A stretch of DNA of 64,000 nt from Candidatus Poriferihabitaceae bacterium (GCA_965249835.1 CBDFMY010000003.1:737979-801978), one strand, 5' to 3'; shown: positions 5,505 through 55,040, counted from the stretch's first letter. Notes: generated by a model not told the origin, from the letters alone. Translations and numbers: made by a program.

Positions 5505-5580
5505 TTTCGCGACTCCCGCCCACGGGTTGTTCCAATAGGCAAGATGAGTCCGGCTACGCCGCGATGAATAGTGTCGCGCG

Positions 5581-5873
5581 AAGCGCAACAAAGCATGGCG
5601 GAAAATAGGCAAGTGCAAAATTGCGCGCCGCATATTTTTTGTCAGGCAAGGCGCGCAAGGAGCGAGGGAGTGAGCAATACATTAAGTATGTGAGCGACCG
5701 AGCGATGAAGCGCAACAAAGCATGGCGGAAAATAGGCAAGTGCAAAATTGCGCGCCGCATATTTTTTGTCAGGCAAGGCGCGCAAGGAGCGAGGGAGTGA
5801 GCAATACATTAAGTATGTGAGCGACCGAGCGATGAAGCGCAACAAAGCATGGCGGAAAATAGGCAAGTGCAAA
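5581..5873. repeat. Tandem direct repeat, 127-bp unit, about 2.3 copies
   Basis: The unit aagcgcaacaaagcatggcggaaaataggcaagtgcaaaattgcgcgccgcat...gagcgaccgagcgatg starts at 5581, 5708 and 5835. The last copy is partial. Confidence 0.95.
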
Positions 5874-6531: not shown

Positions 6532-7851
6532 TCAGGTCTGCGGATTCATCAGTTGCCGAAATGATACCTTTTTTTCGGTGACGGTGGCGGTCTCGCACAT
6601 GCGCGCCACCACCTGCTCATCCAGCACCATTGCCTCAATCGGCTGCAAGCGCACGGGGTCGGCATAATACCAGTTAATCAACTTATTGCTGTCATCATAA
6701 CTGGTTGCCATCTCCTCAACCCGCATCCGAACCGCATCGGCATCGGGCTTCAGGTCGTATTTCTCGATGATGCCACGCACGATGAGAGCGAGGTTTACCC
6801 GATGTTTGGCTTCGGCGGCGAATCGTTCGCGCTCGCGTTCCAGTTCCGATGCGTTCGGCACCGGACTCCCCTGCGCTTCCATTCGCTGGGTGATGCTCTC
6901 AATCATGTGGTCAATTTCCGCTTCCACCATCGCCTTCGGCGCTTTGATGTCATTGACCTTGATCAATTCACCCATGACCTGCGTACGCACTTGCGAACGC
7001 ATTTGCGCAACCATCTCACGCTTCAAACTGACTTCAATTTCCTCGCGCATTTTTTCCATACCGCCTTCGGTGATGCCGAGTTTTTCGGCCAAGGCATTAT
7101 TGAATTCGGGCAGCACCTGTCGATCCACCGCTTTCACCGTGACCGAAAACTCCGCCGCCTTGCTTGCCACTTCGGTGCTGGGATAATCATCGGGAAAAGT
7201 GACCGCGATTTGCTTCGACTCACCGACCGCAACGCCCACCAGACCGGTCTCGAACGGTTCGAGCATGTGCCGGTCTCCGAGTATAAATTGATGGTCGGTG
7301 GCGGAGCCGCCGGCGAAAGGTTTGCCATCAATGCGCCCGTCAAAGTCGATGGTAAGTCGGTCGCCGCTCTGCGCTCGCGCATCCGCTTGTTTGGCGACGA
7401 AATCTGCGTTTCGTTTGCGAATATCCTCCAGTGTGCGGTCGATATCGGCGGCGGTGATTTCGCACAACGGTTTTTCGATGGTGCGGCCATCCAGCGTCGG
7501 GGAAGGAATTTCCGGATAGAGTTCAATGGTGGCGACATATTGCAGGTCGTCGTCGGAACCAAACGGCTTGGGCTCGATGGACACCAGCCCGGCCGCCACG
7601 ATCTCTTCTTTGCCAAGGGCCTCTTGATAACTGGTATGGATGGTGTCGTTGACGACCTCGTTGGTAATCTGCGCACCATAACGCTGGTTGATGATGTTGC
7701 GCGGTGCCTTGCCCGGACGAAAGCCGGGAATGCGCGCGCGCCCGGCCATGCTGCGCAGGCGTTTTTCGATTTCCCGGTCGACCTCGTCTCGCGGAACGGA
7801 AACCGTTACCTTGCGTTCAATGACACCGGATTGTTCGACTGATACTTGCAT
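6532..7851 (-). CDS. tig: Trigger factor
   Basis: The 439-aa ORF begins [20 protein letters not shown] and contains GFRPGKAP, the ribosome-binding signature. Confidence 0.95.
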
Positions 7852-15726: not shown

Positions 15727-17340
15727 ATGAAAATCATTAAAAAGATATTGCGTATTTTCAGCGCGGTCGTTTTCGCGATGGTGATAAGTAACGCCGCCAT
15801 TGCAGAAACGAAAAGTGAAAGAATTGCAAGGTTGCACATACAAGCCGAGCAGGGAGATGCGGAGCTGCAATATCTTTTGGGCTTTGCATACTGGGATGGC
15901 TACAGAGTGGAAAAAGACCAGCGCGTGGCGGTGCGTTTGTGGCGGATGGCGGTCGAGCAGGGGTATGCGAAGGCGCAAGTTAAGTTGGGCTGGGCATACT
16001 GGCATGGCGAGGGCATTGACGAAGATCAGCGCGAGGCGGTGCGTTTGTGGCACCAAGCAGCCGAGCAAGGGGATGCGGGTGCGCAATCTGCTTTGGGCTA
16101 CGCATATGACAGCGGCGACGGAGTCGATAAAGACCAGCGTGAGGCGGTGCGGTGGTGGCACAAGGCGGCAGAGCAAGGGCAGATGTATGCGCAATATCTT
16201 TTGGGCTATGCATACGATTACGGCGAGGGCATTGACAAAGATAAGCGCGAAGCAGTGCGTTGGTATCGCAAGGCAGCGGAACAAGGGCATGCGGATGCGC
16301 AAGTTAATTTAGGCTATGCATACCGGAATGGCGAAGGAGTTGATAAAGACCCGCGCGAGGCGGTGCGTTGGTATCGCAAGGCGGCCGAGCAGGGGCATGC
16401 GACGGCGCAAAGTAATTTGGGCTATGCATACTCTAATGGGAAAGGTGTTGCTGAGAGCAAACGCGAGGCGATGCGCTGGTTTCGCAAAGCAGCCGAACAA
16501 GGGAATGCGGATGCGCAAAATAATTTGGGCTATGCATACTGGAGTGGTGATGGCGTGATTATGGATAAACGCGAGGCGTATATCTGGTGGTCCATTGCCA
16601 AAGCAAATGGTGATGAGAGGGCAGCGAATAATTTACGCAAAACGGATTGGAACGATTATTTATCCAGTAGCGGAACTCGTGCCGCAAACAAAGAAGCGGC
16701 GCGGCGGTTGGAAGCCATTGAAAATCTCGAAGTAGAGACCGCTTCCGTGCCATCCATCAGCGAAAATATTGCATTGGCAAAACCATCCGGCGGCGTGAGC
16801 ATCGCCGAGAAAGTATTTGAGAACGCATGGCGTTCGGTGGTCATCGTTACCACCGAAGACGGACAGGGTAGCGGCGTGATTATCCGCCCGAATGTGGTGG
16901 CGACCAATTGTCATGTCGTGGATGGTGGGGGCGAAATCATCGTGTATAAATCCGACAATCGCCGCGCCGACACGCCTTTTGCCGCCACCATCCGCCGCGC
17001 CGATGACGAACAGGATTTTTGCTTGCTGGATGTTGCCGGTTTGTGGGGCGTTCCGGCCACGGTGCGGCGCTATGACACGCTCAAAGTCGGCGAGACGGTG
17101 TATGGTTTGGGCGCGCCGCAAGGGTTGGATTTGTCGTTGTCGGACGGGCTGATTTCGCAGTTGCGCGAAATGCGCGGCACGCGGTTCATTCAAACCAACG
17201 CTGCCATATCGCCCGGCTCATCGGGCGGCGGATTGTTCGATGGCGAAGGCAATTTGGTCGGCATTATGACGCTGAAAATCAGTGATGAAAGTGTTGAGGG
17301 TATCGGCTTCGCCATCGCCGCCGATTTGGCGATGGAGTAA
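15727..17340 (+). CDS. Secreted Sel1-repeat (about 7 repeats) / trypsin-like (S1, DegP-type) serine protease fusion
   Basis: The signal peptide is MKIIKKILRIFSAVVFAMVISNAAIA-ET. It is followed by repeated GYAYxxGxGVxKDxREAVRWYRKAAEQG units. The C-terminal domain carries the catalytic triad context NCHVV, DFCLLDV and SPGSSGGGLF. Confidence 0.85.
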   Translation: MKIIKKILRIFSAVVFAMVISNAAIAETKSERIARLHIQAEQGDAELQYLLGFAYWDGYRVEKDQRVAVRLWRMAVEQGYAKAQVKLGWAYWHGEGIDEDQREAVRLWHQAAEQGDAGAQSALGYAYDSGDGVDKDQREAVRWWHKAAEQGQMYAQYLLGYAYDYGEGIDKDKREAVRWYRKAAEQGHADAQVNLGYAYRNGEGVDKDPREAVRWYRKAAEQGHATAQSNLGYAYSNGKGVAESKREAMRWFRKAAEQGNADAQNNLGYAYWSGDGVIMDKREAYIWWSIAKANGDERAANNLRKTDWNDYLSSSGTRAANKEAARRLEAIENLEVETASVPSISENIALAKPSGGVSIAEKVFENAWRSVVIVTTEDGQGSGVIIRPNVVATNCHVVDGGGEIIVYKSDNRRADTPFAATIRRADDEQDFCLLDVAGLWGVPATVRRYDTLKVGETVYGLGAPQGLDLSLSDGLISQLREMRGTRFIQTNAAISPGSSGGGLFDGEGNLVGIMTLKISDESVEGIGFAIAADLAME

Positions 17341-42159: not shown

Positions 42160-42660
42160 CAGTTACGCCTGAAGGTGACCTGCGGTAGCCGGACCCGCCG
42201 CCTTTAATAGTCCGGCTATGCTGGGCAACACGCTTTTCGTGTCGTCATTCTGGCTCGAAAAACCGGCGGCGAAGCCGCCGCTATTTGCGCGGCTACGCCG
42301 CGTCTGGATCCCCGCCTGCCGGCGAGGATGACGAATTATAAGTAATGGTGAATTGAGAGGACAAAGGCGAGTTGAGATGCCAAAGCACACGAGAGAAAAA
42401 GTCTGGCTACGCCAGAGCACGTTTTAGTGTCACGCTTTGCGTGACAATTATTTACCATTGTCCTCTCAAAAGGACTCATTGCCTTCCGACTTACCATTGT
42501 CCCCCAACCCGTCATTGCCCGGCTTGTTCCGGGCAATCCAGTTATTAAATCAGCGGCGTTAGCCGCTATCATTACCGGCGGCGAAGCCGCCGCTATTTGC
42601 GCGGCTACGCCGCGTCTGGATCCCCGCCTGCCGGCGAGGATGACGAATACTGATTCTTTC
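42160..42660. repeat. Mosaic intergenic repeat block
   Basis: It contains two copies of cggcggcgaagccgccgctatttgcgcggctacgccgcgtctggatccccgcctgccggcgaggatgacgaat (about 42283 and about 42575). It also contains a 170-bp module (42344-42515) that is about 93% identical to 46004-46175. Confidence 0.9.
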
Positions 42661-42966: not shown

Positions 42967-43992
42967 TTATTCCAGCAACGCCAACACCACCACCGGACGC
43001 AACTCATTCAAGCAGTTCAGATGATCGAGCGGACATTCCCGCTGGAAGCAAGGGCTACATTCCAAGCCAAGGGTAAGGCGGTCGCTTTTGTCGGTCAGCG
43101 GCGGGGTGAAGGCGTCGCTGGACGAGCCGTAAATGGCGATCACATGGCAGCCAACGGCGGCCGCAATGTGCATCAGTCCGGAGTCGTTGGTGACCGCGTA
43201 TTTCGCCAGCGACATCAAATCAACCGCCTCGCCGAGGGTGGTGCGTCCGCAAAGATCGGCGCAGCGTCCCTGGCAAAGTCGGTTGATGTGCGCGGCGATT
43301 TCGCGGTCGTTTTTGGAGCCGAACAACCACACCTGCCAGCCGCGCTGCAATTGCCGATTGGCGACTTCGGCAAAATGCTCGGCCGGCCAACGCTTTGCCG
43401 GACCGTATTCGGCGCCGGGGCAAAGCGCGATGACCGGCGCATCGGTGGCAAGCGCGAAGCGCGACGCGGTCTCGGCAACCATCGCCGGCTTCACCGCCAG
43501 TGCCGGTTGGGGGATGTCGTCCAGGCCCGGTGGCGCGGCTTGTTTGCGCATACCGAGCGCGGCGAATTGTTGCACATTGAGCGGCATCACCCGCTGGTCT
43601 ATAACGCGAATATCGTTCAGCAACCCCCGGCGTTGCTCGCCGAGATAGCCGGTGCGCTGCGGGATTTTCGCGAACCACGGCACCAGCGCCGACTTGAACG
43701 AATTCGGCATGACGATGGCGCGGTCAAAAACCATGCTGCGCAGTTGGCGTCCGAGTCGGTATCTCACGCGCAAACCCAACTCGCCATGCCCAAGCGGCAG
43801 ACAAATCCGGTGCGCGACTTCCGGCATGCGCTCCAGTATCGGCATACTCCAGGCCGGTGCCAACACGGTAATTTCGTTATCAATCTGATTGGATTCAGAC
43901 GCACGCTTCAGCACTTTAAACAAACTTTGCGCCATCACCATATCGCCGACCCATGCCGGACCGACAATCAGGGTTTTTTCATGGTTCGCCAT
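42967..43992 (-). CDS. waaF: ADP-heptose:LPS heptosyltransferase II
   Basis: The 341-aa ORF begins MANHEKTLIVGPAWVGDMVMAQSLFKVLK and contains TNDSGLMHIAAAVG, which is GT9 WaaF-like. Confidence 0.85.
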   Translation of the reverse strand: MANHEKTLIVGPAWVGDMVMAQSLFKVLKRASESNQIDNEITVLAPAWSMPILERMPEVAHRICLPLGHGELGLRVRYRLGRQLRSMVFDRAIVMPNSFKSALVPWFAKIPQRTGYLGEQRRGLLNDIRVIDQRVMPLNVQQFAALGMRKQAAPPGLDDIPQPALAVKPAMVAETASRFALATDAPVIALCPGAEYGPAKRWPAEHFAEVANRQLQRGWQVWLFGSKNDREIAAHINRLCQGRCADLCGRTTLGEAVDLMSLAKYAVTNDSGLMHIAAAVGCHVIAIYGSSSDAFTPPLTDKSDRLTLGLECSPCFQRECPLDHLNCLNELRPVVVLALLE

Positions 43993-45541
43993 GCGCTGGT
44001 CGTATGGTGTTTATCACTTAGTTCAAATACATCCGTGAAGCATTTCAATTGCGCCGGCTTGTTGCGCCAGTCGTGTAGAAAACGCCGACGATCTTTGCGA
44101 TGTTTATGTATAAATATGCGCAATGCGCCGGGGATTTTTGATCGGATCGGCGCGGAAAAATCCTGGGTTTGATCGAGATCAATCAGCGCGATGTCTTGCT
44201 CGGTGACCAACAAATTGTGCGCATTCAAATCGCCATGGTAAATCCGCGCGCGGCGCATTTTTTCCAGCAACGCAACCAACCAACTCAATTCCAACTCGTT
44301 CGGTGGCTGATGCTGATACTTTTGCGCCGCCGTGGGGAACTGGTTGAACGCGCAAACAAAATAACTACCCAGCAGAAATGGCCCCCAGCGTTTTTCCACG
44401 AAAGCAATGGCGCCTGGTGTTTTGATGCCGCTGATTTTTAGCAGATGCGCGTTGCGCCAGGCAATGCGCGCCTTGCTGGTGCGCAAACAATATCGCAACC
44501 CGCGAACAATGGTCTTGCGGTTATAGCGTTTAATAATCACCCCCCCCCCCCCCCCCCCCCCCCGAATTTGGCACGCACCACGGTGGTGGAACGCCCATCT
44601 TTCACCATCTCGGCGCGCGCCATCCAATCATCCGGATTTTGGAAAAACGAAATCAACTCAGCGCAATGATACTTGCGCATCCACACCGCCGTTTGATGCC
44701 AACTTTTATGCACCGCGATTTCACTGCCAACGCGAAAACATTCGGCAAGATAACGATCCTTGCAACGCCGCCACTGGTGGTATCGCGCTTGCGCTTGCGC
44801 GCTATTTATATATGCCTTGATATACTTGAAAAACACGCCGCTGGCGGCACACCAGGCAATTACCAAACCGCGCCAGCCGTCAAGGAAACCCAACTGCAGC
44901 GCATAACTTTTGGCGAAGGTATAACCGGCGCGCAACACCACCAACGCGGGATGGAATACGCGCGCCTGCGGTGCCGCCAACTCGGAGTAATCCCGAATCT
45001 TGTCGATGCGAGCATTAAGATTGGCGGTAGTGTAATGATCGACTCCGCCGGCCAGCAGAATCTTTTTGCTATGCGCGTGCAGCACGATGCCTTCGTGTAC
45101 TTTGGCTTGGGAAAATTCGTGCCGGCGACGATCAAACAAACGCGGAATGTGATCTCGCCCCAAGCCGCCACGCTTGATGTGTTTGCCCATGAAAAAATTA
45201 CGCCGGTCAATTACGCCCAGGCGATTTTCATCGCCGTTGGTATCCCACAACGCCAGCGCATCGCACAGATCAACATCCGCAATTTCGTCCGAGTCGATCG
45301 AGAAAATCCAGTCGTGGGTGGCTTTGGTGACGGCATCTCTTTTCGCGTCTCCGAAGCCATTGAACTCGATTTCAAACACGCGCACATTGGCATATATCGC
45401 GGCCCGCGCGATGGTGTTATCGCTCGATCCAGTGTCGCACACCACGACTTCCTCGAAAACCGCCAACGCCTGCAAGCATTGATCTATGGTGCGCGCCGAA
45501 TCGCAAGTAATCATCACCGCGCTGATGTTTGGAATTTTCAT
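43968..45541 (-). pseudogene. GT2 glycosyltransferase fused to an LPS kinase (Kdo/WaaP/InaA family), out of frame at a poly-G tract
   Basis: ORF 44537-45541 encodes a GT-A domain (ISAVMITCDSARTI, SIDSDE) and the kinase N-lobe, ending ...TTVVRAKFGGGGGGGG*. ORF 43968-44627 continues as GGGGGGGVIIKRYNRK...YHGDLNAHNLLV...IDLD. One additional G would join them into a single protein of about 524 aa. Confidence 0.75.
44540..44563. repeat. Homopolymeric C24 tract (G24 on the coding strand)
   Basis: I counted it directly: c at 44540 through c at 44563. Confidence 0.95.
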
Positions 45542-45589: not shown

Positions 45590-46240
45590 ATAAAAAGAGG
45601 TATCCGGGGTGGCCGGATACCTTATATTGTGTCATTTCTGCTAAAGCAGAAATGACGGCGTATTTAACTGGATTCCTGCTTCCGCAGGAATGACGGTCCG
45701 GGGCAAATGACGACAAGGGGCAAAGACGGGCTACGCGCAATTTCGCTCCCGCGCGAACTGTCCTGCACCGTATTTCAACTTAGCCCGTCATTCCCGCCGG
45801 CAGGCGGGAATCCAGAGTGGCGGCGTTAGCCGCCGGGACGCGCTCATACAGTAGCGGTAAGCAACAAACACCATCGCCTTGCCGTCATTCTCGCATCGAA
45901 CGGCGCGGCTTCGCCGCAAAGGAGTCCGGCTACGCCGGACGGCATATTCCACTGGATTGCCCGGCCAATAATAATATGGGCCGGGCAATGACAAATGATA
46001 GGCAATGGTGAATTGAGAGGACAAAGGCGAGTTGAGAGGCCAAAGCACACGAGAGAAAATGTCCGGCTACGCCAGAGCACGTTTTAGTGTCACGCTTTGC
46101 GAGACACTTATTTACCATTGTCCTCTCAAAAGGACTTATTGCCTGCCGATTCACCATTGTCCCCCCAGCCCGTCATTCTCGCCGCAGGCGGGAATCCAGT
46201 TAAATATGTCGTCCGGCGTAGCCGGACTCCTTTGAAAGAG
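45590..46240. repeat. Mosaic intergenic repeat block (dRS3-like ATTCC..GGAAT hairpins plus the 170-bp module)
   Basis: It contains the hairpins gtcatttctgctaaagcagaaatgac, attcctgcttccgcaggaat and gtcattcccgccggcaggcgggaatccag. The segment 46004-46175 is homologous to 42344-42515. Confidence 0.85.
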
Positions 46241-46377: not shown

Positions 46378-47173
46378 CTAATTTTTGCCAAAAACTTCGG
46401 AAAAACATTGTAACTGTTCTGGTTTGCTCTTCCAATCACGCAAAAACCTGCTTTTGTCTTTGCGGTGTTGGCACAAAAACTGGTGCGAGGTTTTCGATGA
46501 AAAATCTTTCACCGAATTAATGTCAATGGCTATTATTCCGTCATCACTTATCAATATATTATCCGCATGGAAATCGCGGTAGTAAATCTGCGCCAGAAAT
46601 AATGTTTCCAGCAGTTTTTTGAACCAGATAATCTCTTGTTTGGTTGGCAGTTGATACTGGTATTTCTCCGCCGCTGTTGGAAAATCATTGAACGCACAAA
46701 CATAATAAGAATCCAAACGAAATGGCCCCCAGCGTTTTTCCACGAAAGCATATGGGGCTGGCGTTGCGATGCCACTAAATAGCAGTAGATGAGCATTTTT
46801 CCAGCAACTGCGTGCTTTGGTTGCACGCAGGCTATGCCGCAATTTGCGGAAAATAGTTTTTGTGTTAGCGTGTTTAATAGCCGCCTTGTAGCGTTTAATC
46901 ACTACCCCCCCCCCCCCCGAATTTCGCGTACACGACCGTGGTCAAACCATCGTCTTTCATCATAACGCCGCCTTCAATCCATGCGTCCGGATTTTGCAAA
47001 AAAGAAATCAGCTCAGCGCAATAATGCGCGCGCACCCACACCGCCACTTGACGCCAACCCTTGTGCGTCTCAATTTCACTGCTATTGCGAAAGCATTGCT
47101 TGAGATAGTAATCTTTATGCTGTCGCCATTTCTTGCTACCGAGCCGTCCGGCGGTTTTTGGTGCGGTGTTCAT
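46378..47173 (-). pseudogene. LPS kinase (Kdo/WaaP/InaA family) paralogue, out of frame at a poly-G tract
   Basis: The N-terminal ORF reads MNTAPK...DDGLTTVVYAKFGGGGGSD* and the C-terminal ORF reads (V)IKRYKAAIKH...YYRDFHADNILI...IDIN. Both halves are homologous to 43968-44770. A tract of 13 or 16 G would restore a protein of about 264 aa. Confidence 0.75.
46905..46918. repeat. Homopolymeric C14 tract (G14 on the coding strand)
   Basis: I counted it directly. It sits at the position equivalent to the C24 tract in the paralogue. Confidence 0.95.
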
Positions 47174-47415
47174 CAATAACCATCCATCTCCCGATACGGT
47201 TCATATCTCCCCGGTCCGAATAAACTCATCGGATACGCCGCGGCGTTGATGAACGACTTGACGCCACGCCAGCGTTGACCGGGCAGGAATATCGCGAACG
47301 GCAACAGGACAACGCCTTTGACAAAATAAAACAACGCGCCGGCCAGGATGTGCGTCGCCGGTTTTGCGTTGTTGATGCGGAACAGATACGTGGCGATGCT
47401 TGCAGAAATCAGCAT
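47173..47415 (-). pseudogene. Orphan 3' fragment of a GT2 glycosyltransferase gene (paralogous to 49511-49740)
   Basis: Its 80-aa translation, ...KPATHILAGALFYFVKGVVLLPFAIF...YPMSLFGPGRYEPYREMDGY, aligns with the C-terminus encoded at 49511-49735. No catalytic N-terminal part is present. Confidence 0.7.
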
Positions 47416-47437: not shown

Positions 47438-47902
47438 TTAAGAAATGCAAATTTTCGGCAATGCTTGCTTGTTTTTAATATGATAGATATGTTTCGTTTT
47501 ATTACGCAATGAAATCTTTTCGGTGGTTAATTTTCTGCGCGCTGATGGGCTAACGCCTTTGGAAACCCAAACGGGCATAAAATCGAATGCAGAACAATCA
47601 AGAGCGGGATCGTTATTCAGAAAAGTACAGACAAAAGTGGCACCACCTTGTAATTGTGCTTTTACTTTCGTTACATCAGAGATGTTAGTTTTTCTTTCTA
47701 CCAGATAAATACCAGTGATGTTTTGGTTTATATTGAAAAAGATAAATTCATCACATCGTTTTCCAGTAGCATTTCGCTGCATACGAAAAATACAATCCAC
47801 ACAAAAAACAACAGGTCTTGTTACATTTTTCAGTTGGTATTCTGATGGAGGTTGAATTGCGCAACTTGTATGCCTCGCACAAAATTCCTGCTTAATCATC
47901 AT
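47438..47902 (-). CDS. Hypothetical small protein with a possible PD-(D/E)xK nuclease motif, AT-rich
   Basis: The 154-aa ORF contains ...KRCDEFIFFNINQNITGIYLVERKT..., a D...E-x-K arrangement. Its start overlaps the ATPase stop codon by 8-11 nt. Confidence 0.5.
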   Translation of the reverse strand: MMIKQEFCARHTSCAIQPPSEYQLKNVTRPVVFCVDCIFRMQRNATGKRCDEFIFFNINQNITGIYLVERKTNISDVTKVKAQLQGGATFVCTFLNNDPALDCSAFDFMPVWVSKGVSPSARRKLTTEKISLRNKTKHIYHIKNKQALPKICIS

Positions 47903-49412
47903 TGTTATCCCTTTCGTCTAGCAGGCTAATTGTCCGATTATACAAAGCGGAAGAAACCTCTAAATGGTCTTTGGTTAAAATGCCGGTTTCACGATCAAAC
48001 TGGATTTTCTTGACGGCGGTATTTTTGTACTTGCTTCTTCTTGGCTGATTAAATAAATAAACAGAAATTTTTTCTTTGTTTAGTGTTTGTCCGTTAATTT
48101 CAGTACTCGATAGTTTGGCTTGCTTGTTTTCTTTAGCGTTACGTATATCCGCCGCGAGTATACAATTGCCGATTTGCTCCAATATGTTGTCGCTATGGGT
48201 GGTGATTAATACATGAACACCAGCATTGACCAACTGCACTAGAATATTGGATATTTCCACTTGTGCGGCGGGGTGCAGATGGGCTTCCGGCTCTTCAACA
48301 ATAAATAGATCGTCGCAATTAACATGGTGACGAGCGAATAAAGAAACGGGTGCTAGTTCTGAAACCATGGATGACACGCTCATTAACGGCAAATCATGTT
48401 TTTTTCCATCGCTTTCAAACGCATAGCGGAAATCCGGGTAACGCGTCTCAGACATTTGCACATTTATTTCCCCCCCCATGATTTTTTTCTCTATTCCCTT
48501 GCCAATTTCATCAATTTTCTTCCTCTGTTTTTTTCGATCGTGATTATAAAGAGATTTTCGATAAAATCCATATCTTCTTTGAAATCTTCTATCAGCAATG
48601 GAGACATCCATGTTAATTAATTTTTGCATGAAATCCGATAAAACGCCGTTAAAAAGTGGAATGGGTGGTACTTTGCTTAGCCCTGCCATTGGAGCGCGCT
48701 CAATTAAAGCACTGACAAGGGTGCGGTGACTCTGCATGATACCACCACGGATTGCAGGCAAATAATGAGGAACAGTGTGTGCACTAATCCCTTCTTCTTT
48801 GTCTAATAAAGAAGTAGAAAAGTGCTTGTCTAGTATCTCTGCATAATAGCGCTGTATAATATGCCGATGGAATATGGCTCTTTCATCTGGCTCTTCCTCA
48901 TCAAAACGATCTTTAATAATTCTTAACAAATCGTTGTTTATCAATGTGCGCAGTTCCGATTTTTTTTCATCAGTTAACTTACTATTGTCTGGAGAAGATA
49001 AATCTAAAATAAGTTGGTTTTTGCTGTCAGATATTACGATGGAGATTTTTCCATTTTCGTTCATCATCATCTTTCTTCCCTCTTCACCGAAACAGTAAAC
49101 AAACTGCTCTTTCCAGGAGGCGCTGAAAATGTTTGCCCATAGAAGAAAGCGTTTTTCTATTTCTTTTAATGTGACTTGATTTTTTTGTAAACTGGCTAAA
49201 TCCGATTTCTCCCCCTTATCCATTTCCCTTCGAATTTTATAATGCATGTTCTCCCATATATCGCCGTCATCCCCAAACACTTTGATAATTGAATAAATCA
49301 ATATCGCTAGGTAGGATTTTCCCGTATTACTGGGGCCGACAAAAACAGTCATAGGTTTAACATCCACCTCTGCTTTACGAATCGGCCCGAAATTTTTCAC
49401 AATAAGTTTCAT
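47892..49412 (-). CDS. ABC/OLD-type (AAA_15/AAA_21-like) ATPase, AT-rich
   Basis: I chose the start at MKLIVKNFGPI, after a GGGAGGAAA ribosome-binding site. The Walker A motif is GPSNTGKSY, the Walker B/D-loop is LFIVEEPEAHLHP, and the H-loop is ITTHSD. A long helical insertion lies between them. Confidence 0.75.
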   Translation of the reverse strand: MKLIVKNFGPIRKAEVDVKPMTVFVGPSNTGKSYLAILIYSIIKVFGDDGDIWENMHYKIRREMDKGEKSDLASLQKNQVTLKEIEKRFLLWANIFSASWKEQFVYCFGEEGRKMMMNENGKISIVISDSKNQLILDLSSPDNSKLTDEKKSELRTLINNDLLRIIKDRFDEEEPDERAIFHRHIIQRYYAEILDKHFSTSLLDKEEGISAHTVPHYLPAIRGGIMQSHRTLVSALIERAPMAGLSKVPPIPLFNGVLSDFMQKLINMDVSIADRRFQRRYGFYRKSLYNHDRKKQRKKIDEIGKGIEKKIMGGEINVQMSETRYPDFRYAFESDGKKHDLPLMSVSSMVSELAPVSLFARHHVNCDDLFIVEEPEAHLHPAAQVEISNILVQLVNAGVHVLITTHSDNILEQIGNCILAADIRNAKENKQAKLSSTEINGQTLNKEKISVYLFNQPRRSKYKNTAVKKIQFDRETGILTKDHLEVSSALYNRTISLLDERDNNDD

Positions 49413-49510
49413 TTCATTTCCTCCCGTGTTTGATGCGCTGTAGTATAAATCAGAAAATACGAGAGATGCAATCCACATGGTTTCATGTCATCACCCAGCC
49501 GTCCGCGCCA

Positions 49511-50421
49511 TCAATAACCATCCATCTTCCGATACGGTTCATATCTCCCCGGTCCGAATAAACTCATCGGATACGCCACGCTTTTCAGGAATGATTTTCC
49601 ACAACGCAAACGTTGTTCGATGGAGAAAATAGCAAACGGTAACAATACGACACCTTTGATGAAGTAAAAAACCGCTTCAACCAGAATGTGCGTTGCCGGT
49701 TTTTGTTTTTTGGTTCGGTTGGCGTAAGTAAGCACACGAACACGATTATAGTGACGCCTGAGGGTGAACCACCCCCCCTTGATGATGGCCGCGCGCCTCG
49801 GCCGGTGCGGTGTCGGGATTGGCTATCCACGCATTCGCTTTGCAACGCGGGTCGGCGATGAACTGCGCGCCGGCAGCGATGGCACGCTTGCCAAAATCCG
49901 TGTCTCCGCCGCCGGTTAAGTTAAACAACGGGTCATAGCGAATCTTAAGATTGCGGTAAATGCGCGCCGAGATGATGATGTTTCTGGATGGCAGTGGTGG
50001 GTTCTTTACCGCTTTATATTCGCCGTGCGCAGGACCAACGGCATCACCGCCGGTTTCCCGAATAACCGTGTATAAATCTGTCAACCAGGTCGCGCTCACC
50101 GGTCCCTCATCGTCATCAGTGCTGGCGATGTAGTCGGCGCCGATTTTGATTGCGTAGTCGAACAGATGATTACGAATGTTGCTGTGTCCGCGTTCGGCGC
50201 ACACGCGGTAATTCACTGGAAAAGGCGCATTGCAAGCAAACTCTTCCACGACTTCGCGCGCTTTCATCTTTGTCGTTATCGGCAACGACCATACGCACCT
50301 CGACGTTTTCGGGAAGCGCGCTCTCGCCGATGGATTGCAAACATATCGCCAGCATCCGTGGACGCATACAGGTCGGTATGCCAATCAGTATCAGCGGTTG
50401 CGGTGCTTTGGCGCGATTCAT
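49511..50421 (-). pseudogene. GT2 (GT-A fold) glycosyltransferase with two frame disruptions
   Basis: The N-terminus reads MNRAKAPQPLILIGIPTCMRPRMLAICLQSI...ADNDKDES in frame 1. It continues as AREVVEEF...ASTDDDEGP in frame 2, with the switch near the (CG)n run at 50255-50261. It then continues as W FTLRRHYN...PMSLFGPGRYEPYRKMDGY in frame 3, after the G7 tract at 49772-49778. Confidence 0.65.
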
Positions 50422-51245
50422 TTCGCCGCCCCGAAATACCACCCCAGCGCAAACATGGCAATCGCCACAACCAGCCGCAACAAACGCCCACGATATTTTG
50501 TCCATCGGGTATCATAATTTCGCACATGCTTGCCGAAGCCGGTGTGTTTGACCGCATCGTTTTCCAAAAGCACAGTGAAATAACCCTGCGCGGCGTAGTG
50601 TTCGCTTGCGATCATTTCCATGTCGGCCAGTGATTGTCCCTTTGCCACCAACGATGCATAGCCACCGTCCGGATATTGCGCTCGTCGCCGCAAACCCGGA
50701 TTGAAAGAAAAACACTGGCTATGGGAAAGCGTGGTATTGACTCGGTAATACGCAATGCTTTGCACCGTTTTCCGCTCAGCAAGAACCCAGGCACACGCGC
50801 CATAAAAAGCAAGGTCATGATGATAACTCCGCAAGTGCACCATCAAGGATTGCGGCTCCGCCTCCAGCACTGTTTTGGAGTCTTCGATAAAACCCGGGCG
50901 GTAAAACAACCAGTCGTCTTCGCAGTGAAAAATATAGTCGGTCTTTACTAACCGATACGCTGTATCAATGGCCGAAACCTGGCCAATTTGCGGCTGGTTG
51001 ATAATCAAATCGATTCGCTCACGATATTCTGCCGGAATGATATTGCGAACCTCGTCCTTGCCGGAATCCTCGATTAAAATGAATTGTGAAATGGGATAAG
51101 TGTTGTGTTGAAAAAAACTATGCAATGTTTGTGCAAGCAGATTAAACCGGCCGCAACTGGTCAGAACGACGGTGACATCGCTGGTTTTGGAAAACAGGTT
51201 ATCCATTTGCAGATTGTGCGGAGAAATCAAATAGTGATTGCCCAT
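50418..51245 (-). CDS. Glycosyltransferase (GT-A-like) with a C-terminal membrane anchor
   Basis: The 275-aa ORF contains VTVVLTSCGRFNLLAQTLHSF, LIEDSG and HCEDDW (DxD-like) motifs. Its stop codon overlaps the next start codon (ATGA). Confidence 0.6.
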   Translation of the reverse strand: MGNHYLISPHNLQMDNLFSKTSDVTVVLTSCGRFNLLAQTLHSFFQHNTYPISQFILIEDSGKDEVRNIIPAEYRERIDLIINQPQIGQVSAIDTAYRLVKTDYIFHCEDDWLFYRPGFIEDSKTVLEAEPQSLMVHLRSYHHDLAFYGACAWVLAERKTVQSIAYYRVNTTLSHSQCFSFNPGLRRRAQYPDGGYASLVAKGQSLADMEMIASEHYAAQGYFTVLLENDAVKHTGFGKHVRNYDTRWTKYRGRLLRLVVAIAMFALGWYFGAAK

Positions 51246-51416: not shown

Positions 51417-52183
51417 ATGTATTTGCTCTATCTCGATGGATCGGGAACAGTCAAAAACCCGAACGAACGCCATTTCATTCTGGCTGGCGTCGCTGTGTTT
51501 GAGCGTCAAGTATATCACCTCATTCGCAAAACCGATGAATTCGTCTCCTCGCTCAACGTAGGGAACCCTCACGATGCGGAGTTGCATGGTAGCGTGATGG
51601 CAAACGGAAAATCCGCTCCATGGAAAGGAATAGCACGACAAAACCGCTTGGAAATTATTGAGCGGGGATTGAACTTGCTATCCACCGCGCATCAAAGCGT
51701 GAGAACATTTGCAGTAGTCGTAGACCATTTGCAGTAGTCGTAGACAAACAAGCCTGCACGCTGGATGACCCCGTTGAATATGCATTCGAGGAAATTAGTA
51801 ACCGTTTCGATTTGTTTCTGAGGCGGTTATACAGGCGAGATGGGAACCAGCAACGCGGATTGGTCATCATGGATGAGTCGCATTATGAAGAGTCGTTACA
51901 AGGGTTGGCCAAGCGTTTTCGCGAAGAGGGCACCCGATGGGGAGTGTTCCCCAATCTTGCCGAAGTCCCATTATTTGTAGACTCCGCCGCTTCACGCTTG
52001 ATTCAACTTGCGGACCTTTTGGCGTGGGCTGTTTGGAGACGTTATGAGCATCATGACACACGCTATTTCGATTCAGTTGTCGGTAGATTCGACAAAGAAG
52101 GTGGCACCATTCACGGTTTGGTACACCGCAAACGCTCCGCAGATGAGTGTCACTGTCCCGCTTGCATGTCCCGAGCAAATTGA
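51417..52183 (+). pseudogene. DUF3800 family protein, disrupted by a 20-bp tandem duplication
   Basis: The N-terminus MYLLYLDGSGTV... is typical of DUF3800. The frame breaks at the duplicated catttgcagtagtcgtagac (51706-51725 and 51726-51745). Removing one copy gives a continuous ...RTFAVVVDKQACTLDDPVEYAFEE... that joins ORF 51812-52183. Confidence 0.7.
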
Positions 52184-53196: not shown

Positions 53197-53958
53197 TCAT
53201 CGCGCAACGCCTTTGTCCGGTTTTATGTTCAACGCATACCAATAGGGTTCGAACGCCTGCTCGGCCGCATCCGCAACCATCTTCACAAAAGCGCTGTAAT
53301 TATTTTCAGTGCAGGACAAATCAAGCGCATCATAATATTCAAGGCGTTTTTCAACAGGAATAATCACCGGCGGGAAACCGCCTTTCATCAGTTCAAGATT
53401 CATCAACAACCGAGAAGTTCTGCCATTGCCGTCAATAAATGGATGCACTTTCACAAAATCCGCATGCACCCGCGCCGCTCTTTCGATTGGATGGAGTTCA
53501 AGCGCCGCGCTTTGATACCATTCAATAAATTGCGCCATTTTTACAGGCACTTGTTCGTGCGCCGGCGGGAAATGTCGAGCGCCCCCAATAATGACATTAA
53601 CCGATCGATACACGCCTGCATTTGCATTATCGATTTCTTTTAAAACCATCTGGTGAATGGCTTTTATATCTGTTTCCGTTAATGATTGATTTTCCTTGAC
53701 GATTTTCTCCATCAACGAAATCGCCGCATGGTGGTTGACAACTTCGAGATGCTCGCGCAGGGTCTTGCCGCCAATGGTAATGCCTTCCAATACAACCTTG
53801 GTTTCCATTAAGGTGAGGCTGTTGCCCTCGATGGCATTGGAATGATAGGTCCAGCGCAATGTAAAATCTGTGTGCAGGTTGCCAACCGCCTCGGGCGGAA
53901 GCGGTCGAAAAGAATCCAGTTTCAGTTTCAACTGGTCGAGTTTATTGTACTCAATCAT
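53197..53958 (-). CDS. fic: Fic family protein (class II, with an intramolecular inhibitory motif)
   Basis: The Fic motif is HPFIDGNGRTSR, and the N-terminal SNAIEGN fits (S/T)xxxE(G/N). I chose the start at MIEYNKLDQ, whose ATG overlaps the upstream GT2 stop codon (ATGA). Confidence 0.85.
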   Translation of the reverse strand: MIEYNKLDQLKLKLDSFRPLPPEAVGNLHTDFTLRWTYHSNAIEGNSLTLMETKVVLEGITIGGKTLREHLEVVNHHAAISLMEKIVKENQSLTETDIKAIHQMVLKEIDNANAGVYRSVNVIIGGARHFPPAHEQVPVKMAQFIEWYQSAALELHPIERAARVHADFVKVHPFIDGNGRTSRLLMNLELMKGGFPPVIIPVEKRLEYYDALDLSCTENNYSAFVKMVADAAEQAFEPYWYALNIKPDKGVAR

Positions 53959-55040
53959 TGTTTTAGCGGCGCCGCCAATTGATGCGCCACTTTCATCGCG
54001 TAACGCCATTGCCCGGCGCGAAGCGCGTAAAAAAGCACGCCGCGTAGCACTTTTTTCAATGTTCGTCGGTCGTGTTTGTCGGTGGCAAGGGTAGTCAACC
54101 CGTCAATGATTTGCTCGGCGGCGTGGCTCATTCCGTTGCGTAGCGAGCGTCTGCACCAGTGGCGCGCGCTTTTCATGCAGGCCGCCTTGATTGGATGCGG
54201 CAAGGTTTTGAGCGCAGGAAGCAAGTCGCACGGGGGCGAATCCGCGGCGGTCGCATGATCAATCGGGTCGGCGACACCCTGTCGACGGCAATGCGCCGAC
54301 AACACAGCCGCGCACCAATAGTGCCAGAACAAAACCTGATTTTGGCTCATGTTATTTGCAGACCCTTCGGGGTATTGGCGATATTGACACAGCGGCGGTG
54401 CGTTGAGATGCGCGATGCGGTGTTTTTCCGCCATGCGCAACGAGAGATCAAAGTCCTCCAAAAAACCACGAAACCACGGACGATAAGTTGCGCCCGTGTC
54501 GTCCAGTGATGACATCCGAATCATCGCGGTCTGGTTGACCAGTATCGGGCCGGGCGGCAGTCGCAACAACTCTTCCAGCGGCACCCCTGCTTCCTGCGCG
54601 GGAGTGCGTGCGCGTTGTGTTTTTATGTGCGCACCGGATTCGTCAATCAATTCGCAACGACACGAAACCGCGGCGTATTCGGGATTTTGGGTAAGAAAAA
54701 CAACCTGTTGTTCCAGTCGTCCGGGATGCGCAATGTCATCACCGTCCATAATCGCAATGAAGTCGCCGCGGCATCTGGCGATTGCCGCATTGCGCGCGGC
54801 AGCCGACCCCGCGTTGTCTTGATGGATGATAGTTACGCGAGCATCCCGCTCCGCATATTCCGTTAATATATCGGCGGTGGCATCGGTCGAACCGTCATTC
54901 ACCACGATCAATTCCAGATCGGTAAAACTCTGGTTGAGGATGCTTTCCACGGCGGCGTGCAGGTACGCCTCGGCGTTGTATGCCGCCATGATCACGCTGA
55001 CCGCGGGTTTTGTCACGGGGGCTGTTTGTGCTTCGTTCAA
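53955..55040 (-). CDS. GT2 family glycosyltransferase
   Basis: The 361-aa ORF contains VSVIMAAYNAEAYLHAAVESILNQSFTDLELIVVNDGSTD and IAIMDGDD. Confidence 0.85.
   Translation of the reverse strand: MNEAQTAPVTKPAVSVIMAAYNAEAYLHAAVESILNQSFTDLELIVVNDGSTDATADILTEYAERDARVTIIHQDNAGSAAARNAAIARCRGDFIAIMDGDDIAHPGRLEQQVVFLTQNPEYAAVSCRCELIDESGAHIKTQRARTPAQEAGVPLEELLRLPPGPILVNQTAMIRMSSLDDTGATYRPWFRGFLEDFDLSLRMAEKHRIAHLNAPPLCQYRQYPEGSANNMSQNQVLFWHYWCAAVLSAHCRRQGVADPIDHATAADSPPCDLLPALKTLPHPIKAACMKSARHWCRRSLRNGMSHAAEQIIDGLTTLATDKHDRRTLKKVLRGVLFYALRAGQWRYAMKVAHQLAAPLKQ

Follow-up and report, generated by a model that had tools for sequence, protein, structure and literature searches.

The window, by which we mean the whole 64-kb stretch of DNA analyzed, carries exactly 14 consecutive C residues on its plus strand at positions 46905-46918. 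In the sense of the minus-strand gene in which they lie, hereafter gene B, these form a G14 tract (46905..46918, minus strand), a candidate hypermutable switch. We counted the G/C runs of the window: nine of 6 bases, one of 7, one of 8, and then only two longer than 8, namely this C14 and a C24 at 44540-44563. Given the base composition, a 64-kb window should contain 0.0008 runs of at least 14 G or C, and the gene B tract is a long intragenic simple sequence repeat far above chance. The tract divides gene B into two reading frames. From an ATG at 47173, the N-terminal frame (46895..47173, minus strand) encodes 92 aa in the OFF state seen here; this part holds the N-terminal helices and strands beta1 and beta2, then reads GGGGGSD into a stop codon that ends at 46895, so that the ORF terminates in ...TTVVYAKFGGGGGSD, also given as ...DDGLTTVVYAKFGGGGGSD. 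The C-terminal frame (46378..46904, minus strand; P0001) begins with strand beta3, which bears VIKRY and Lys94; the catalytic loop (YRDFHADN) and the metal-binding IDIN follow, and the frame closes with a stop at 46378. Its ORF (46902-46378, 174 codons) reads (V)IKRYKAAIK... in a different frame from the N-terminal part.

The preliminary description of the locus had reported this tract as an out-of-frame G14 and had proposed that 13 or 16 G would restore a kinase of about 264 aa. Base count and frame translation confirm the former. As to the latter, substitution of G13 or G16 in silico gave a single ORF of 265 or 266 aa from a TTG at 47176, and G10 did likewise (264 aa); counted from the ATG at 47173, each repaired ORF is one residue shorter. 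At lengths other than 3n+1, a stop codon falls 0 or 3 codons past the tract. A change in repeat length thus shifts the frame and truncates the product, and other lengths restore it. In a public protein collection, the N-terminal part is present as the 92-aa protein P0103, and a 91-aa allele of the same cluster bears the NCBI name 'hypothetical protein'. A 58-aa ORF that overlaps the tract on the opposite strand was judged spurious, and we found nothing in support of that ORF or of a promoter role.

A paralogue, A, is separated from gene B by 2.3 kb (43968..45541, minus strand; 523-524 aa if in frame) and is a fusion of a GT2 glycosyltransferase with a Kdo/WaaP-family kinase. Both parts score over the Pfam threshold (PF00535 and PF06293, the latter with 36.4 bits against a cut-off of 21.3). 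The C24 run is the tract of paralogue A (44540..44563, minus strand); this G24 is out of frame, and G22 or G25 would be in frame. The kinase parts of A and B share 54% identity as proteins, and their DNA is 71-75% identical to either side of the tract. Their alignment (VVRAKF-Gn-VIIKRY in A, VVYAKF-Gn-VVIKRY in B) bears out the earlier claim that the two tracts occupy the same codon. Natural full-length alleles of A that are in frame exist (P0085, P0086, P0089, P0006 and P0097; 506-523 aa), and the front half of one A allele is named 'glycosyltransferase family 2 protein' by NCBI. In one relative, L003 (NZ_OZ252047.1, Ca. Spongiihabitans sp.), the A copy at ~6586-7157 has HGN for HGD, and hence has lost the catalytic Asp, in addition to an out-of-frame G14. 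This copy may be in decay.

Directly downstream of A lies a waaF-like GT9 heptosyltransferase gene (42967..43992, minus strand; PF01075 on the L001, L010 and L011 orthologues), which marks the region as an LPS inner-core locus. Gene B is surrounded by GT9, GT2 and GT4 genes, as in an LPS core cluster, and the same neighborhood is found in L001, L010, L011, L014 and L017. Immediately upstream of B is an 80-aa ORF (47173-47415, minus strand) whose stop overlaps the B start codon (ATGA). Most of this ORF (47171..47380, minus strand) is a diverged copy of the 3' end of a GT2 gene (49509-49718), and the two segments are therefore the arms of a 210-nt direct repeat (78% identical) around a two-gene cassette (47438..49478, minus strand). 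The cassette encodes a 528-aa AAA_15/AAA_21 ATPase and a 154-aa product. The ATPase matches PD-T4-4_A, an anti-phage protein (E = 1.5e-39); the smaller product gave no match. The same PD-T4-4-like cassette is present in L003, L010, L011 and L014, and it looks like an old insertion between the upstream GT2 gene and kinase B. That GT2 gene (49509-50505, minus strand) is intact in L003 (303 aa) and L010 (294 aa) and broken in the window by two repeat-associated indels, of which one removes 2 nt from a (GC)n run near 50254-50261 and the other changes G6 to G7 at 49772-49778; it could be a pseudogene, a further instance of low-level phase variation or a consensus error.

Further along, a tandem duplication of 20 bp (repeat 51702-51745) has divided a DUF3800 gene (51417-52183, plus strand) into two ORFs. 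Deletion of one copy in silico gave a 248-aa ORF, the length of the intact DUF3800 protein of L011. A Fic-domain protein (53197-54009, minus strand; motif HPFIDGNGRTSR) is wedged between glycosyltransferase genes and matches the candidate defense families PDC-S04 (E = 5e-41) and SoFic (1e-32). The interleaving of anti-phage-type genes in the LPS locus is compatible with, but no proof of, a contribution of LPS variation to phage escape. The window also contains several repeats. A 183-nt element occurs downstream of the waaF-like gene (42328-42510) and of gene B (45988-46170) with 92% identity, and an exact 75-nt repeat occurs at 42262-42336 and 42574-42648; these dispersed repeats are possibly REP- or MITE-like elements. 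Two arrays with a 108-nt (36-codon) period, at 15843-16588 and 18811-19937, hold about 6 and 10 copies, respectively, at 74-81% identity; we take their consensus to resemble Sel1-like repeat proteins, a class often reported in sponge symbionts. Finally, a perfect 127-nt tandem repeat lies at 5580-5873 (2.3 copies, 100% identity).

When the repaired gene B alone was compared with Pfam and NCBIfam, no match was obtained at E<0.01. Its PF06293 score of 14.1 bits (E = 0.032) lies under the gathering cut-off of 21.3, and all 6 members of the alignment A1 match PF06293 at E<=1. Consequently, the family assignment was taken from the paralogue, the alignment, the predicted fold and the gene context. 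The nearest sequence relatives of gene B are GT2-kinase fusions and double-kinase proteins of ~460 aa; the latter carry PF06293 and are 46-48% identical to it. An AlphaFold2 model of B(G13), built from a 34-sequence alignment, had a mean pLDDT of 94 and a pTM of 0.90. In a Foldseek search, the best match to this model among solved structures was WaaP (6DFL_A, E = 1.9e-8), followed by PRPK/Bud32 and Rio1; model and WaaP (6DFL) share 17% sequence identity, with a TM-score of 0.46-0.50. In the family alignment, K94 (ATP-binding) and D201 and N206 (catalytic) are invariant and D218 (metal-binding) is nearly so. Model and alignment together predict a protein-kinase-like fold equipped with the ATP-binding Lys, the catalytic Asp and Asn and the metal-binding Asp. 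Gene B departs from its relatives in two motifs, YRD against HGD and IDIN against IDLD, which amounts to three changes at near-invariant residues (H199Y, G200R and the second Asp of IDLD to Asn). YRD is a normal variant of the catalytic loop in protein kinases, for example in PKA. Homology, fold and context lend good support to the identification of gene B as an LPS core kinase, with LPS as its presumed substrate.

The glycines encoded by the tract had been placed at the glycine-rich-loop position in the preliminary description, and this part of its interpretation did not stand. According to DSSP, the strands of the B model are beta1 (71-75), beta2 (79-86) and, after a turn at Gly87-88, beta3 (89-96), which bears K94. 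The equivalent of the P-loop in the model is the beta1-beta2 turn at residues 76-78 (Asp-Gly-Leu). The poly-Gly forms the beta2-beta3 hairpin (residues 87-90), directly ahead of the VIK-Lys strand. A profile-to-PDB alignment, in which the family 'RVKMDGRAVVIKR' lies over MAPK7 'RRRLTGQQVAIKK', gave the same placement: the family 'MDGRAVVIKR' is aligned on MAPK7 'LTGQQVAIKK', the turn before beta3. Model strands and MAPK7 alignment thus indicate that the tract codes for the beta2-beta3 hairpin. We rejected the P-loop (GxGxxG, beta1-beta2) placement on the same grounds, since the tract residues fall after beta2 and before the catalytic-lysine strand. Tractless relatives have four residues in this turn (Asp-Gly-Arg-Ser and similar), G13 in gene B would supply exactly four Gly, and the natural in-frame alleles of the paralogues supply five to seven. 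The hairpin appears to tolerate from 3 to at least 7 glycines.

The genomes closest to the window are complete MAGs of sponge symbionts named Candidatus Spongiihabitans sp. (Gammaproteobacteria, Arenicellales, Ca. Poriferihabitaceae). Four alleles of gene B, and no more, are present in public collections, each OFF and each of a different length: G14 in the window (on a 1.91-Mb contig), G11 in L003 (NZ_OZ252047.1), G17 in L014 (ERZ26167708 ctg196924) and G21 in L010 (ERZ26167708 ctg196962). Sample ERZ26167708 contains three related strains. Among the four, the coding flanks (782 nt) differ by 0-7 substitutions. Between L010 and L014 there are 0 substitutions, yet the tracts are G21 and G17; between the window and L003 there is 1, yet the tracts are G14 and G11. 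As a control, a G8 run in the neighboring ATPase gene (48470-48477 in the window) is equally long in the window and L003. Tract length is thus polymorphic among close relatives and the flanks are conserved, which is the pattern of a phase-variable gene. Neither homology search nor exact-sequence cluster look-up of the N-terminal ORFs returned an in-frame gene B, of which 0/4 alleles are ON.

For paralogue A, with lengths read from DNA and from protein tails, 15 alleles were obtained: 11, 14 (six times), 15, 16, 17, 19 (three times), 22 and 24. The G16, the three G19 and the G22 alleles are in frame. Alleles in both the ON and the OFF state therefore exist for A (5/15 ON) and were not found for B. 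A third, stand-alone kinase paralogue in L011 has G22 and is in frame. The tract states within one genome are independent: L010 and L014 combine an ON allele of A with an OFF allele of B, the window and L003 have the two genes OFF, and L011 has A OFF with the third kinase ON. This agrees with the earlier suggestion of two independently switchable kinases. In total, 6/20 alleles counted are ON, which is the expectation of a random frame or of a random length error, so that the states alone prove no selection. A bias toward the 3n+2 class, one base over the in-frame length (11/20 alleles), was considered and set aside as not significant (p about 0.1, estimated from the counts of non-independent alleles).

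Out-of-frame tracts also occur on short contigs from elsewhere, G11 in L012 (NCBI metagenome) and G14 in L013 (Logan assembly of an SRA run). More distant orthologues show graded states: L017 has G9 in frame and G6AG5 in a second kinase, and L018 has G6AG6. The double-kinase relatives have MDGRS/EGQA at the tract position and no tract, and loci L004-L008 have no G run. Among GTDB species-representative genomes, one (L003) bears the tract and the remaining relatives are tractless; a scan of JGI metagenomes with the kinase alignment gave one 28%-identical relative and no additional tract alleles. These graded states indicate that the tract is lineage-specific, that it predates the paralogues, and that it is long and pure in some branches only. 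The comparison of homologues therefore upholds the core of the preliminary description, a maintained and variable tract: the G run recurs at one codon in several paralogues and orthologues, is confined to the lineage, and differs in length in every related genome, the close relatives carrying variable G runs.

From these results, we consider it likely that gene B is a slipped-strand phase-variable locus for a WaaP-like kinase that is currently OFF. Its product would be a WaaP-like LPS core sugar kinase with a hypermutable poly-G inside the coding sequence. Slipped-strand mispairing during replication would add or remove G residues, presumably in a reversible manner within the population, and only 3n+1 lengths (10, 13, 16 and so on) would join the N-terminal part (helices, beta1 and beta2) to the C-terminal part (the beta3 Lys, catalytic loop and C-lobe). 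The consensus state here, G14, would correspond to a population that is predominantly OFF. Since the beta2-beta3 turn appears to be length-tolerant, in-frame changes would be harmless and frame changes would act as an ON/OFF switch. Since paralogue A has a tract of its own, a population could hold different combinations of LPS core phosphorylation. As to the benefit, we can only guess at a varied phage receptor or host-recognition surface, a guess prompted by the anti-phage genes interleaved in the locus.

Gene B might instead be a dead or dying copy, its tract slippery but locked out of frame, with A and, in some genomes, the third kinase still switching. We regard this as unlikely, although the lack of an in-frame B allele is what it would predict; if each allele had a two-thirds chance of being OFF, four of four would occur with a probability of (2/3)^4 = 0.2. 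The frames before and after the tract are without other stops in all eleven tract-bearing loci for which DNA was read, and both halves of gene B are free of stops and further frameshifts in 4/4 genomes. Downstream of the tract, the orthologues of paralogue A have a dN/dS of 0.17-0.28 at a dS of 0.05-0.75, which is not the behavior of a pseudogene; by this measure, that part of A is under purifying selection. The orthologues of gene B (0-3 differences in the C-terminal part, 0-7 overall) are too alike for dN/dS. However, B is 48% and A 45% identical to P0002, and the dN to L012 and L013 is similar for the two; B is thus no more distant from outgroup kinases than A, which argues against long neutral decay of B. 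The failure to match Pfam or NCBIfam at E<0.01 and the three changed residues would also suit a decaying gene, but the Lys, the Asp, the Asn and the metal-binding Asp are all kept, the YRD of the catalytic loop is normal in kinases such as PKA, and the AlphaFold model is confident. Decay of gene B would further be in keeping with the defense cassette that now separates it from the glycosyltransferase gene it apparently once followed and with the breakage of two other genes of the locus in the window, the GT2 and DUF3800 genes. As a separate observation, gene B differs by 0-0.9% in nucleotides among four co-occurring genomes, compared with 1.9-4.4% for paralogue A and ~2-3% for the surrounding DNA. 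This higher conservation of the gene B segment hints at recent exchange between strains.

All tract lengths given here are consensus-assembly values. The related ENA contigs have names of the form ctg196964_3864x_c, and on this basis they were probably assembled by metaMDBG from PacBio HiFi reads. In a genome note on a sponge, in which Spongiihabitans MAGs are reported, PacBio HiFi reads came from PCR-amplified ultra-low-input libraries and were assembled with metaMDBG (PMC12988363). In metaMDBG, homopolymers are compressed in minimizer space and lengths are then set by consensus polishing; according to its authors, the remaining errors are mostly homopolymer errors (PMC11392814). Each tract length is therefore a population consensus in which a 1-base error is possible. 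Were the true tract in frame, B would be a constitutive kinase with a poly-Gly loop, and the frameshift would be a homopolymer error of sequencing or polishing. Contig names that fit such an assembler, the amplified libraries of that genome note and a proportion of in-frame alleles close to the one third expected from random length error are compatible with this explanation, which we nevertheless find quite improbable. Near-identical flanks enclose tracts that differ by 3-10 bases, far over a one-base miscall, and out-of-frame tracts are also present in L012 and L013; a pure length artifact is unlikely for these two reasons. Moreover, real movement between G11 and G24 necessarily crosses out-of-frame lengths, and the G8 control is the same in the window and L003.

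We give still less credence to the notion that the 'OFF' alleles are leaky or split, with slippage of RNA polymerase or of the ribosome restoring the frame, or with the two halves being made separately and reassembling: bacterial transcriptional slippage is documented mainly on A/T runs, the 3n+2 excess that would favor it is not significant among non-independent alleles, and the natural full-length in-frame alleles of A point to a single chain as the functional design. On the split route, translation of the C-terminal part would begin at the GTG that immediately follows the tract; the G run would serve as a Shine-Dalgarno-like sequence, and the upstream stop would overlap or be at most 5 nt away. 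It is true that the wrong-frame stops lie 0-3 codons past the tract, on or beside the GTG that opens the C-terminal frame (post-tract sequence TAGTGATTAA), that gene callers predict the 174-aa C-terminal part from this GTG, and that the break, lying in a hairpin turn, is favorably placed for a split.

A slipped-strand switch in gene B would rest on a mechanism that, by analogy with the Neisseria lgt genes, the Campylobacter phasome and H. influenzae licA, is itself known (PMC2192423, PMC6321876 and PMC2212159). In Neisseria, the LOS glycosyltransferase genes lgtA, lgtC and lgtD are described as undergoing poly-G phase variation (PMC2192423). The present locus resembles them in having intragenic G tracts in LPS/LOS genes, several tracts per locus, frameshift stops and lengths that vary by strain. 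Here, however, the tract-bearing enzyme is not a glycosyltransferase but a WaaP-like kinase, which in A is fused to a GT2 part, and the tracts reach G21-G24. The bearer also differs: Neisseria is a human mucosal pathogen, whereas the window belongs to an uncultured marine sponge symbiont (Arenicellales) in which switching is deduced from assemblies.

In the licA gene of Haemophilus influenzae, the repeat is a tetranucleotide near the 5' end, and the enzyme phosphorylates free choline. Unlike this arrangement, gene B has its mononucleotide run midway through the kinase N-lobe, and its presumed substrate is the LPS core itself. The two would share a simple sequence repeat inside the reading frame as the switch of a kinase that governs a phosphate-containing LPS decoration, licA being described as phase-variable and as a choline kinase that controls LPS phosphorylcholine (PMC2212159). 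The WaaP protein of known structure (LPS core heptose(I) kinase, 6DFL) shares with gene B the eukaryotic-type kinase fold, the Lys/Asp/Asn/Asp set and a gene position beside core heptosyltransferase genes. Repeat tracts are not known from WaaP genes. The tracts of Campylobacter are mostly G8-G13. They are likewise intragenic G/C runs in genes for surface structures, in which a given tract keeps its position from species to species but varies in length and ON/OFF state, and belong to a poly-G/C phasome (PMC6321876 and PMC8355987); phylum and lifestyle differ from those of the present symbiont.

In the literature searched, we found no tract inside a kinase beta-hairpin and no relevant report on phase variation in sponge symbionts or on phase-variable LPS kinases. 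The new elements are the sponge-symbiont host, the WaaP-like class of kinase, and the position of the tract in the kinase beta-hairpin, repeated in two or three paralogues. A broader reading, which we offer tentatively as possible rather than probable, is that LPS core phosphorylation is varied combinatorially by simple sequence repeats, with 2-3 paralogous WaaP-like kinases, each carrying an independent poly-G switch in the same hairpin, among anti-phage genes (the PD-T4-4-like ATPase, Fic and DUF3800). In a bolder variant, the out-of-frame alleles would yield a translationally coupled split kinase rather than a null.

Repeat-driven phase variation is best known in host-adapted pathogens and vertebrate commensals. 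If such a combinatorial system were true, it would take contingency loci beyond pathogens, to a sponge symbiont, and surface variation could serve as a first-line defense against phages or modulate recognition by sponge cells. Standard MAG annotation is blind to such loci, as the names 'hypothetical protein' and 'glycosyltransferase family 2 protein' illustrate. If the switch is real, symbionts within a sponge would retain a heritable and reversible diversity of outer-membrane charge. This would bear on phage escape inside a filter feeder, in which viruses become concentrated, and on the means by which sponge cells discriminate symbionts from food.
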